Source: Candidatus Thorarchaeota archaeon (lineage in GTDB: Archaea > Asgardarchaeota > Thorarchaeia > Thorarchaeales > Thorarchaeaceae). Taken from it: 64,000 nt of DNA. The notes below the pieces were generated by a model that made no database searches, was not told where the DNA came from, and was given only the letters and a program-made list of their open reading frames with translations. Every line of letters begins with the position of its first letter. Positions within the stretch are counted from its first letter, which is position 1. This document shows positions 60,028 to 63,144 of the stretch, piece after piece. A program made the translations under genes and the position numbers. The stretch spans positions 1 through 64,000 of the forward strand of contig JBHLRZ010000003.1 of NCBI GenBank assembly GCA_048882045.1. Direction: 5' to 3'.

Positions 60028-60432
60028 TTACTTGTGAGCCTTCTGATATTCAACAAGTAGAGTCTTGAGTCTGTCAAGCTTAGTTATTATTTCAAACTCT
60101 GTTTCTTCTCCAACTTCATTTAGAATCTCGTTGAAAGCTATCACATTGCGAAAGTCTTCCATCAGGGCGTCCTTTGCCGCCTTGGTTCTGGCTTTCTTAT
60201 CGTAGACGACAATTCGGTTTTCTGGTTCAAAATTAATGACTATGCTTCTATCCAAATACATGACCTTCTTGCACTTTGGACATTGCACCCGATTAGCTTT
60301 TCCTGATTTTAGTGGCTTGATCAAATCTCGGTCTTCAGATAGGTCGATGTGTTCTATCACATCCGATTCATACACGTTCTTGCATTTCGAACATTTGACT
60401 TCTGCAACACTTGTACTAGCCACTATTTTCAC
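60028..60432 (-). CDS. CpXC-domain zinc-ribbon protein
   Basis: CSKC...IDLSED.DL...L.SG..N...CPKC. Confidence 0.75.
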   Translation of the reverse strand: MKIVASTSVAEVKCSKCKNVYESDVIEHIDLSEDRDLIKPLKSGKANRVQCPKCKKVMYLDRSIVINFEPENRIVVYDKKARTKAAKDALMEDFRNVIAFNEILNEVGEETEFEIITKLDRLKTLLVEYQKAHK

Positions 60433-60477: not shown

Positions 60478-61143
60478 CTACGATGGTTTGGTCTCGCGAT
60501 GTTCAGTCGAATCAACTTCCGAATCTTCGACACCATCATCATCGCCTGTGATTTCATCCTCAATAATGTCCTGCAGCATATCAGACTCCTTTCCTTCAGA
60601 CCTGCGTTTGAAGAGAATACCAGTAATGATTGCTGTGAGAGCTATTGATGCAATTACGATAGGAGCAGACTCAAAGTAGGTGGCGGTTTCAACACCAATA
60701 AGCGCTCCAGCAAGTGTCACAGCAACTTTTCCGATAAAGTAACTAATGAGGAATTTTGCAGAGTTGTATTTTGTCAGTCCTACGTACACAATGAGGGGAT
60801 CATCTGGAACTGGAGACGCAGCTGCAATGAAGAGGGCAAGTGCACCCCACTTTTCAACTCTTTTCTTCTCATTCTCCAACATGTCTAGTCTTTCCTCGGA
60901 TAGAACCACCCTCGAACCTCTCACGACAAGATAATGTATGTACTTTGCCAGAGTAGCTGTGATGGCAACAATGAGACCAATCTGAACCCAACCGAGTTCC
61001 GGAACTAGCAATGCTGCAGCACCTGCAAGGACCATGTTACTCGGACTGAGGAATGGAATCATGTTGATGGCAAAGCAGATGATGAAGAGCCCTACATACC
61101 CCTGCTCAATCATCTGAGTGATGATTAGGAATATGTCTTGCAT
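60478..61143 (-). CDS. DedA/VTT (SNARE-associated) membrane protein
   Basis: GYVGLF, PFLSPS, WGALALFIAAASPVPDD, GLTKY, FIGK. Confidence 0.85.
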   Translation of the reverse strand: MQDIFLIITQMIEQGYVGLFIICFAINMIPFLSPSNMVLAGAAALLVPELGWVQIGLIVAITATLAKYIHYLVVRGSRVVLSEERLDMLENEKKRVEKWGALALFIAAASPVPDDPLIVYVGLTKYNSAKFLISYFIGKVAVTLAGALIGVETATYFESAPIVIASIALTAIITGILFKRRSEGKESDMLQDIIEDEITGDDDGVEDSEVDSTEHRETKPS

Positions 61144-61185: not shown

Positions 61186-61608
61186 TCAAACAGACACCTG
61201 ATTGATGACTACTCTCTGAACTCCATCTAGAACCTTCAACGAGTCTTCAAGCTCCGACAGATCTGAGCTGAGCTGAGATGGATTGAAGTAGCACTCATAG
61301 AAGCATCTGGTCCCTCGCAGACAAACTCCTGTCGAGAAAAGTAGGTCAACAAGCCCTGACTTCTTGAAGATTTGAGAGAGTTTTGTCAGGAAGTCGTTTG
61401 TCAACTTTCCAATCTCAAGGCTTAGGAAAAGTACCTCATCACTTTCGAGAGGAAATATCTTGATGAGTCGGTCCTTGTGAACAAGAACCATCAAACCTTG
61501 ACCGGTTCCCATAGCGTTCTTGAAGGCAGTTGGGAATTTCACGGTTTCACTGGAATCAAACACAAGTACTCGACCAGCAGTTGCTCCATCATAAGATTCG
61601 TCAGACAT
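61186..61608 (-). CDS. possible AbrB-like + ACT-domain regulator
   Basis: N-terminal VFDSSETVKFPTAFKNAMG (AbrB-like); C-terminal LTKLSQIF...LKVLDGVQRV (ACT-like). Confidence 0.5.
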   Translation of the reverse strand: MSDESYDGATAGRVLVFDSSETVKFPTAFKNAMGTGQGLMVLVHKDRLIKIFPLESDEVLFLSLEIGKLTNDFLTKLSQIFKKSGLVDLLFSTGVCLRGTRCFYECYFNPSQLSSDLSELEDSLKVLDGVQRVVINQVSV

Positions 61609-61747: not shown

Positions 61748-62014
61748 ATGAAACCGAAAGCAATTGAGAGAAAGCCACAAACTCGCTTGAGAGAGGTGTC
61801 AGATCTCAGAACTCAGTTCCAGTGTGAGTACAGATTGTACTTGAAACAGAAATGTGAGGAGTCCTCATCAGAAGCAAGCCTCATGGGATCAATACTCCAT
61901 ACGAGAATAGGAGACACTTCGCGATTGCAGAAGGTCCAAGAAGGTAGAGGAATCCTGCCTTTGTTGATTATCATAATGACATTGGTGATAGGTTTACTCT
62001 GGATAATCTGGTGA
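61748..62014 (+). CDS. N-terminal fragment of Cas4/RecB-like nuclease with C-terminal TM anchor
   Basis: VSDLRTQFQCEYRLYL...GSILH, then GILPLLIIIMTLVIGLLWIIW-stop. Confidence 0.65.
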   Translation: MKPKAIERKPQTRLREVSDLRTQFQCEYRLYLKQKCEESSSEASLMGSILHTRIGDTSRLQKVQEGRGILPLLIIIMTLVIGLLWIIW

Positions 62015-62018
62015 TACT

Positions 62019-62678
62019 ATGAATGCGTTCTTGGGCCTGATTCTGTTTATCGTCTTCTTAGGAGGTATTCTGCTTCTCCTGAATATGCATGCTCGGACAG
62101 GATTCTCCACAACAGGAATGAAGATACATAGAGCAGTTCCAGCACCTTGGAATCTAACAGAGTTCCTCAGGCTCAAGCCTAGTCGTTGGAAGATTGGGGA
62201 GTATTATTTGTTTTGTGAAGAAACCGTTCGGTCACTTGGTCACAGGTTTGTCGGGAGGTTTGATAGTGCAATACTTCACTGGGAAGAAGCTCCAGTGCTG
62301 GATATTGTTATGGAGTACAAGTTTCCAGTCAATCATCTACCTGAGCAGAGGCGACAAGAGGATATCTTTCAAGCTGGGCTTTACGCCCTTGCCTTAATGG
62401 AAACCGGGGTCTCATGTTCCAGTACTCGACTTGTGACAATATATTGTCTCCAAGACAAAGCAAGCAGATGTGTTGAAGGAAAATCAAGCACATCATGTTG
62501 GAATTGTGGAGATAGCAAGATTTTCACAAACCGCTTCAATCCACATTATGCAATCAAGACTTTGAAGAGGTTGGATGAAGTCTGGTACAAAGGGAGAAAA
62601 CCAAAACCGACGCTTGAACGTCAGAGATGCAGGGTATGTCCCTATAGCAGGGATAAATGTAATTACTCCACAGTCTGA
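62019..62678 (+). CDS. PD-(D/E)XK Cas4-like nuclease core with N-terminal TM anchor
   Basis: N-terminal TM; GRFD, MEYK, QAGLYALAL, C-terminal CRVCPYSRDKC; own GGTGA SD. Confidence 0.75.
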   Translation: MNAFLGLILFIVFLGGILLLLNMHARTGFSTTGMKIHRAVPAPWNLTEFLRLKPSRWKIGEYYLFCEETVRSLGHRFVGRFDSAILHWEEAPVLDIVMEYKFPVNHLPEQRRQEDIFQAGLYALALMETGVSCSSTRLVTIYCLQDKASRCVEGKSSTSCWNCGDSKIFTNRFNPHYAIKTLKRLDEVWYKGRKPKPTLERQRCRVCPYSRDKCNYSTV

Positions 62679-62718: not shown

Positions 62719-63144
62719 ATGAGTACCATGGTTCATTCATTGACTCGCCTACTCACATATGTCATGAGTGCAAAGAGAGACCTCAAGCGTGTTTACTACA
62801 CTAGTCGAAATCAAGAGGGAAAGCTTGATGCCAAGGAACTCGTTGCAGCCACAATCACACTTCAGAAACTACTGGAGGATCTCATAACAAAGAATAGAAC
62901 AATCCGAATGGCGAAAAAAGTACTTGAAGACCGAAAAGCTGAGCTCATGCTACGGAGATGGTTAATCGGTTTTCCAAAAAGGGTCAAAGATTTCATATCG
63001 AAATCGAAAAAGCTTGATCAGTTGCACCTTCGAAAATATCAACAGTCATTTCTTGCCTTCATCACTGAAATTAGTGAAGAGCTTGCAAAATGGATTGAGG
63101 ACATCGAAACCCTCAGAGAGATTCCCCGACCTCCAAAGCCATGA
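62719..63144 (+). CDS. hypothetical basic helical protein
   Basis: In-frame ATG 62719/62728 after the Cas4-like stop; K/R/L-rich. Confidence 0.55.
   Translation: MSTMVHSLTRLLTYVMSAKRDLKRVYYTSRNQEGKLDAKELVAATITLQKLLEDLITKNRTIRMAKKVLEDRKAELMLRRWLIGFPKRVKDFISKSKKLDQLHLRKYQQSFLAFITEISEELAKWIEDIETLREIPRPPKP

Follow-up and report, generated by a model that had tools for sequence, protein, structure and literature searches.

The locus considered here raises the question of whether one iron-sulfur DNA nuclease may be built from two separate membrane proteins. In a Candidatus Thorarchaeota genome (assembly GCA_048882045.1), two short open reading frames (ORFs) follow one another on contig JBHLRZ010000003.1, whose first 64,000 nucleotides make up the stretch we analyzed and refer to as the window. 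ORF1 (61748-62014, + strand) encodes 88 residues and ends with the codons TGG TGA, and ORF2 (62019-62678, + strand) encodes 219 residues from an ATG at 62019 in the +1 frame relative to ORF1, its own frame being closed upstream by a TAA at 62004. A first-pass annotation made from the sequence alone had reported both ORFs at these positions and had read them as membrane-anchored halves of a Cas4/RecB-like nuclease that assembles only when the halves meet. Using profile comparisons, structure prediction, and a survey of related genomes, we find that these two adjacent Thorarchaeota genes probably each contribute one membrane helix and a portion of one Cas4/Exo5-type iron-sulfur DNA nuclease.

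Iron-staple nucleases such as Cas4, AddB, Dna2, and EXO5 are described as soluble single-chain domains in which the cluster pins both ends of one polypeptide. The standard models of these families recognize the Thorarchaeota proteins poorly: neither PF01930 nor PF09810 (Exo5) matched ORF1, ORF2, or anything else in the genome, and ORF2 reached only an expect value (E) of 0.003 and 17.5 bits, below the cut-off of 65, against the C-terminus of the Cas4 model TIGR00372. The PDDEXK_1 model PF12705 gave no match to the window's ORF2 alone, a score of 22.0 bits against a cut-off of 22 for the read-through orthologue described below, and a precomputed match on two database homologues of ORF2. Residues 69-140 of ORF2 matched the PADLOC Cas4 profile (E 1.1e-5), and the best PDB sequence match of an ORF2 profile was human EXO5 (E 0.014).

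The relatives that cover both ORFs came from a profile search of 301 Asgard genomes, in which the family was present in 65 of the 76 genomes of one family and elsewhere gave weak partial matches. These weak matches are soluble single-chain proteins of 256-274 residues that pass the Pfam Exo5 model (31-37 bits, cut-off 25) and have EXO5 as their sole PDB match (E 1.6e-7). The ORF2 profile aligned with them from motif II through the C-terminal cysteine triad (hhalign probability 97.7%, E 1.3e-12), and the ORF1 profile aligned with their first 65 residues (E 1.5e-4), with Cys26 opposite their N-terminal Cys and G47-x3-H51 opposite GTEIH, the counterpart of which in EXO5 is GASIH. Their N-terminal Cys aligns in turn with a Cys of human EXO5, and the triad of ORF2 aligns with the CxxCx5C of EXO5, with TIGR00372 Cas4, and with the Asgard Exo5-like proteins themselves. 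On this collinear mapping, the single-chain relatives have a 34-residue soluble linker where the pair has two membrane helices and ~50 further residues. These alignments identify ORF1 as the homologue of the N-terminal module and ORF2 as that of the remaining fold. The earlier suggestion that ORF1 resembles Cas4-type N-termini is thus sustained by a profile match in which both Cys26 and His51 find partners.

A whole-fold comparison was obtained with a proxy, a same-frame orthologue from another genus (locus L046 in genome G009) in which the TGA between the ORFs was read as Trp to give a chain of 303 residues, folded by AlphaFold2 with unpaired ORF1 and ORF2 rows. The model has a mean predicted local distance difference test score (pLDDT) of 80.9, above 90 in the core, and a predicted template modeling score of 0.76, and it contains two long helices at residues 64-83 and 87-107. 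Its five best Foldseek matches are Cas4, EXO5, and SSO0001, with probability 1.00. In VIA-align, residues 6-303 superpose on residues 5-202 of Cas4 (7mi4_A) with a Z of 15.1 (186 aligned residues, root-mean-square deviation 3.6), and the model superposes on EXO5 residues 74-357 with a Z of 14.1; other matches are type I-C Cas4 (Z 14.2), AdnA (Z 12.8), SSO0001 (Z 11.5), AddB (Z 9.2), and Dna2 (Z 7.9). The control, the window's ORF2 folded alone by AlphaFold2 (mean pLDDT 88), matched residues 54-198 of Cas4 with a Z of 10.4 and residues 148-355 of EXO5 with a Z of 8.5 (VIA-align), and so covered only the C-terminal three quarters of either protein. Because the read-through chain matches the whole of Cas4 and EXO5, N-terminal helices included, while ORF2 alone matches only their C-terminal parts, ORF1 would provide the missing N-terminal module, which in the model is placed as in Cas4 and EXO5. 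The same whole-fold superposition suggests that the four cysteines of the staple converge on one site. Together, the profile and whole-fold matches bear out the first-pass reading of the two polypeptides as parts of one iron-staple nuclease.

The residues on which such an enzyme would depend are conserved on both chains. The family alignment of ORF1 has four invariant residues: C26, G47, H51, and W85. Cys26 (codon at 61823-61825, +) sits in the N-terminal signature SDL...Q-C26-EYR and is the predicted first, N-terminal iron-sulfur ligand, and G47-x3-H51 (61886-61900, +) constitutes RecB motif I, with His51 as a predicted metal ligand. In ORF2, the invariant set comprises D82, K101, Q118, Y122, C143, C151, C160, C163, C204, C207, and C214. 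The catalytic core (62253-62384, +) consists of G79-R-F-D82 (motif II), E99-x-K101 (motif III), and Q118-x3-Y122 (QhXXY), and all three motifs align with the Exo5-like proteins and the PADLOC Cas4 profile. Motif III reads E99-Y-K101, with E99 invariant in a 21-sequence alignment and nearly so in one of 82 sequences. Near the end of ORF2, C204-x2-C207-x6-C214 (62628-62660, +), also invariant, would supply the three C-terminal ligands of the staple. One N-terminal and three C-terminal cysteines therefore surround the nuclease domain, as in Cas4, where such a 1+3 set binds the cluster (PMC4176176), but here they are distributed across two chains. In SSO0001, the catalytic metal is bound by His62, the equivalent of His51, along with Asp99 and Glu113 (PMC4176176). 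The motif I His of the Thorarchaeota enzyme is thus probably also on ORF1, and therefore the active site itself would be composite. The functional residues are invariant at sequence identities of only 34-60%. Every motif listed in the first-pass annotation is present, with its key residues invariant; the C-terminal spacing, given there as CxxCx5C, needs correction to C-x2-C-x6-C in this genome and x6-x7 in relatives.

ORF2 carries a further lineage-specific site of four cysteines, C143-x7-C151-x8-C160-x2-C163 (62445-62507, +), predicted to be a zinc or second iron-sulfur site. All four are invariant across the 82 sequences, comparison with the sequences of the single-chain Asgard relatives found no such site in them, and the site is modeled mostly above 90 in pLDDT, falling once, to 72, between C151 and C160. 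The site probably holds a structural metal peculiar to the lineage.

Each polypeptide has one hydrophobic stretch of membrane grade. Helix 1, I69-W88 (61952-62011, +), occupies the extreme C-terminus of ORF1, and helix 2, F4-M23 (62028-62087, +), opens ORF2, where the modeled helix runs from residue 3 to 27. In 44 orthologous pairs, Kyte-Doolittle hydrophobicity averaged across 19 residues has median values of 2.7-2.8 (2.78 for helix 1, 2.7 for helix 2) and a minimum of 1.9. These values and the two long AlphaFold2 helices uphold the earlier assignment of one membrane helix to each polypeptide. Helix 1 is followed by a tail of only 0-7 residues in the 44 orthologues and carries the invariant W85; in 42 of 46 sequences the third residue ahead of this Trp is small. 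Lys and Arg together number a median of 2 across the 15 residues preceding helix 1 and 3 across the 15 following helix 2, whereas the ~5 residues at the two free ends have a median of 0, and no Lys or Arg precedes helix 2. By the positive-inside rule, these counts indicate that ORF1 is a tail-anchored protein with its N-terminus inside and that ORF2 has its N-terminus outside and its C-terminus inside, so that both soluble parts would be cytoplasmic. A cytoplasmic location suits an iron-sulfur protein.

We consider it likely that the pair is a Cas4/Exo5-type iron-staple PD-(D/E)xK nuclease with a two-helix membrane hairpin between motifs I and II, encoded by two genes cut exactly at the tip of that hairpin. 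The two ORFs would be translated in a coupled manner from one mRNA, the stop codon of ORF1 lying inside a GGTGA that ends 4 nucleotides before the ORF2 start, and the products would be made in 1:1 amounts. ORF1 would enter the membrane by its C-terminal tail anchor and ORF2 by an N-out signal anchor, leaving both soluble parts facing the cytoplasm. The two membrane helices would then pair, and the N-terminal helices of ORF1 would dock on the ORF2 core. A single iron-sulfur cluster would be ligated across the chains by Cys26 of ORF1 and Cys204, Cys207, and Cys214 of ORF2, and the catalytic metal would be bound by His51 of ORF1 and Asp82 and Glu99 of ORF2, with Lys101. On its own, either product would be inactive. 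Once assembled on the cytoplasmic side of the membrane, the enzyme would cleave the ends of single-stranded DNA, the substrate expected from its likeness to Cas4 and EXO5 (PMC4176176, PMC8710748).

Several points weigh against this reading. The similarity of ORF1 to N-terminal modules is weak when taken alone, with hhalign probabilities of 22-52% and an E of 0.05 against the Pfam model of the Dna2 N-terminal nuclease region. In the read-through model, the ORF1 module reaches a pLDDT of only 67-89, and the model itself is a covalent chain from another genus, built with unpaired rows in which the membrane parts of ORF1 are misaligned to helix 2. The cluster may be dispensable for catalysis, since cysteine mutants of Pcal_0546 and SSO1391 that have lost it go on cutting DNA (PMC4176176). 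Two loci of genus g10 (L039 and L040, in genomes G022 and G024) have no ATG, GTG, or TTG ahead of the ORF1 motif within the open frame. Finally, the neighborhood of the pair gives no pointer to a pathway.

The two-gene arrangement is a stable property of the lineage. ORF2 has 196 database homologues, nearly all of ~220 residues, and ORF1 has 36 homologues of 75-105 residues; all belong to Thorarchaeota. Within the class, 70 of 87 genomes carry ORF2, as do 19 of the 24 of high quality and 14 of 17 genera. We excised 50 loci from related genomes to compare their neighborhoods, and an intact ORF1 homologue stands directly 5' of ORF2 in 48 of them, a layout that spans 14 genera. The split is accordingly a real and conserved feature, and an ORF2 lacking its ORF1 is very rare.

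The surroundings of the pair are equally regular. A 140-residue gene (divergent), ORF1, ORF2, the 141-residue ORF3, and aRF1 (convergent) form a syntenic order, the flanking genes being found in 41-48 of the 50 loci, and the pair is single-copy and vertically inherited in one Thorarchaeia family. As the first-pass annotation had noted, the window has no CRISPR array, nor any other tandem array, and no cas1 match was found in the whole genome, which is 93% complete. In place of a CRISPR-cas adaptation module, the neighbors are aRF1, a DedA gene, and genes of no known family. We found no relative on IMG/VR viral contigs and no PADLOC system match beyond the Cas4 domain itself.

Against this constant background, the pair evolves much faster than its neighbors: median identity within genera is 47% for ORF1 and 58% for ORF2, compared with 85% for aRF1 and 91% for the 140-residue gene. 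It is also dispensable, or accessory, having been lost or disrupted several times. Two genomes carry deletion scars between intact flanking genes, with only the last 20 codons of ORF2 remaining in G031 (L074, G031:C244, 954-1013) and only ~40 codons of ORF1 in G082 (L069, G082:C39, 934-1056). In two others (L031, G085:C355; L032, G084:C80), a TnpB-like gene, recognizable by its zinc-finger motif CxxC...CxxC followed by ...HADxNAAxNI, has its 3' end where the N-terminal part of ORF1 should be, and ORF2 is still open, as if an IS200/IS605-type element had recently inserted into the pair. In genera g15 and g3 both neighbors are present without the pair, and the aRF1 tree, being unresolved at depth, does not polarize loss against primary absence there.

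ORF3 and the 140-residue gene were considered as partners and rejected, as both are retained where the pair has been deleted. ORF3 (window 62719-63144, +) encodes a helical protein without a family match, for which the ESM Atlas offered nothing usable; it occurs at 48 of 50 loci and changes rather quickly, with 68% identity within genera. The 140-residue protein (window 61186-61608, -) is Thorarchaeota-specific and has no Pfam match, and the ESM Atlas points weakly to regulators of the ACT or MazE/AbrB-plus-ACT kind.

These features pull the biological role in two directions. Fast evolution and repeated loss incline us towards a conflict-related or accessory job, and stable synteny with single-copy vertical descent inclines us towards a repair-type job. 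On balance, we lean slightly to a defense-like function or membrane-proximal clearing of DNA ends over Exo5-like repair. A defense-like role is a tentative first choice, a part in repair or replication restart is a little less probable, some other role is less probable again, and DNA uptake is improbable.

The first-pass annotation had gone further, proposing that cluster and active enzyme form only once the two anchored halves come together in the membrane, which would give an assembly-gated nuclease for incoming DNA in defense or uptake processing. We regard such a defense, with halves that stay separate until their meeting turns the nuclease on, as improbable, even as the best of the alternatives. 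The architecture would permit such switching, and fast evolution with repeated loss is what many defense genes display. Adjacent and seemingly coupled genes suggest co-synthesis and immediate pairing, however, and argue for constitutive 1:1 co-assembly over gating. The locus is syntenic and chromosomal, lies beside aRF1 and not in a defense island, and matches no PADLOC system beyond the Cas4 domain; no sensor or partner is lost together with the pair, ORF3 and the 140-residue gene staying behind when it is deleted. Fast evolution and loss are compatible with a role against incoming DNA but are not proof of it, and neither the gating nor that role is supported by our analysis.

A second alternative takes ORF2 as a self-sufficient membrane nuclease and ORF1 as an unrelated small membrane protein, such as a regulator, chaperone, or immunity factor. 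The weakness of the ORF1 similarity on its own, the open ORF2 beside a disrupted ORF1 in G084 and G085, and the DNA cutting by cluster-less Cas4 mutants (PMC4176176) would all fit. By itself, though, ORF2 is without the first ~50 residues of the Cas4 fold and without the first cysteine ligand, and ORF1 has exactly the missing Cys and the G-x3-H, invariant and collinear with the single-chain relatives. Adding ORF1 raises the Z from 10.4 to 15.1 for Cas4 and from 8.5 to 14.1 for EXO5. We therefore rate a self-sufficient ORF2 as still less probable than gating and retain the two-chain enzyme.

The junction between the ORFs bears on whether the two chains are ever joined. In the window, it comprises a Shine-Dalgarno-like GGTGA (62010-62014), which contains the ORF1 stop TGA, and a 4-nucleotide spacer 'tact', together spanning 62010-62018 (+). 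The frame of ORF2 relative to ORF1 is +1 in 27 loci, +2 in 19, and 0 in L046, with a further offset of 0 in L049, which was detected separately. Among 47 loci, the gap is 4 nucleotides in 25, 5 in 4, 1 in 2, and 9 in 1, with an overlap of 1-10 nucleotides in 12 and an ambiguous start in 3, so that 44 of the 47 fall between -10 and +9 nucleotides. ORF1 terminates with TGA in 44 of 47 loci, the stop falls within GGTGA in 31 of the 47, and ORF2 always retains its own start codon (ATG, GTG, or TTG). One locus has an oddity at that start: L025 (G052:C1) carries an in-frame TAG at codon 3 after the expected ORF2 ATG and a TTG directly behind the TAG, which may be a shifted start or fresh damage. The arrangement makes it most likely, from the sequence, that ORF1 and ORF2 are translationally coupled.

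Programmed recoding, by a frameshift or by stop read-through, would yield a single chain with an internal membrane hairpin. This idea draws on L046 and L049, which represent two genera and in which the ORFs share a frame and are parted only by TGA and 2-3 codons. No single event could serve offsets of +1, +2, and 0 as well as overlaps of 1-10 nucleotides, there is no conserved slippery site, and ORF2 has its own start, preceded by GGTGA in 31 of 47 loci; we judge recoding very improbable. A natural fusion was sought as well. Among 5.8 billion proteins there was no fused form, the 303-residue read-through query being covered to at most 72%, and a phmmer (HMMER) pass over 1.84 billion representatives returned only 23 real relatives, of ~220 residues and at most 252, with no fusion. 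Three sets of candidates were set aside on inspection. Upstream open frames of 260-296 residues that resembled fusions came from reading ORF1 or a TnpB-like gene through in the wrong frame, matches of 315-320 residues in family f27, considered as hairpin-bearing single chains, turned out to be soluble Exo5-like proteins, and a 4586-residue protein (P0179) was a chance match to a repeat protein.

Since no one frameshift or read-through event could fuse all of the junction layouts, and the ORF2 start is always kept, ORF1 and ORF2 are two separate genes and not the product of an assembly frameshift; with three frame relationships and no fusion, the continuous ORF in homologues that would have undone the first-pass proposal was not seen. 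A single gene interrupted by a recent frameshift or by an indel from sequencing or assembly, which the 4-nucleotide gap and change of frame would resemble in one sequence viewed alone, is hardly credible given the two-ORF layout in 48 of 50 loci and 14 genera with varied offsets, overlaps, a conserved start, and a Shine-Dalgarno-like sequence, the agreement of independent assemblies (an identical ORF2 on 4 contigs and a one-residue ORF1 variant on another contig), and functional residues held invariant at 34-60% identity.

Among characterized proteins, eukaryotic EXO5 is the nearest relative of the pair. The N-terminal V-[ST]-D-L-x-T-Q-x-x-C-E of the EXO5 family (PF09810; human EXO5, PDB 7LW7-7LWA) matches ORF1, and the succession G-x-x-I-H, D, E-x-K, FQ-x-x-LY, and W...C-x2-C-x5-C tail is collinear with the two chains. 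EXO5 is a single nuclease domain in which a [4Fe-4S] cluster joins N- and C-terminal cysteines (PMC8710748). It and its Asgard relatives (L059, L060, L061, L077) differ from the pair as soluble single chains with neither membrane helices nor the 4-Cys insert. With Cas4 and solo-Cas4 proteins (PF01930/TIGR00372; SSO0001, 4IC1; Pcal_0546, 4R5Q; type I-C, 8D3L; Cas4-Cas1, 7MI4), the pair has the fold in common, as the Z of 15.1 indicates, and shares with solo-Cas4 a location away from CRISPR loci (PMC5704561); it differs in scoring far below the family thresholds, in its two membrane-anchored chains and extra 4-Cys site, and in that no cas1 was found. AddB, AdnA, and Dna2 likewise have a PD-(D/E)xK domain stapled by a cluster through one N-terminal and three C-terminal cysteines, but as domains within large soluble helicase-nuclease machines, whereas the pair would be a free-standing two-subunit membrane protein. 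In the literature we searched, which included one Cas4 phylogenomics paper, no split or membrane-anchored Cas4/Exo5 nuclease was described.

What sets the Thorarchaeota pair apart is a fold cut in two, each piece tied to the membrane, in an arrangement kept across one whole Asgard family. As a natural split enzyme with its cluster and metal site predicted to lie across a subunit interface, it would offer a clean system in which to ask what the staple does. It would also mean that the archaeal lineage nearest to eukaryotes has a predicted DNA-end nuclease on the inner side of its membrane. A more speculative extension, which we think unlikely, is that ligation of the cluster across two membrane proteins lets its insertion or loss, through iron supply or oxidants, decide whether the nuclease is active, that the pair belongs to a widespread and so far undescribed class of membrane-embedded Cas4/Exo5-type nucleases policing DNA at the envelope (for instance from viruses, plasmids, or uptake machines), and that a DNA tunnel formed by two chains might load without a free end.

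Two observations lie outside the pair itself. Further upstream in the window, a gene at 60028-60432 (-) encodes a CpXC-family double zinc-ribbon protein (PF14353, E 2e-13) and adjoins the gene of a DedA/VTT membrane protein (60478-61143); the synteny of these two genes extends over part of the family. At L059 (G266:C377, 38-1893), from another Asgard family, the soluble single-chain Exo5-like gene overlaps an upstream NurA-domain gene by 4 nucleotides, which suggests an operon of NurA and an Exo5-like nuclease.

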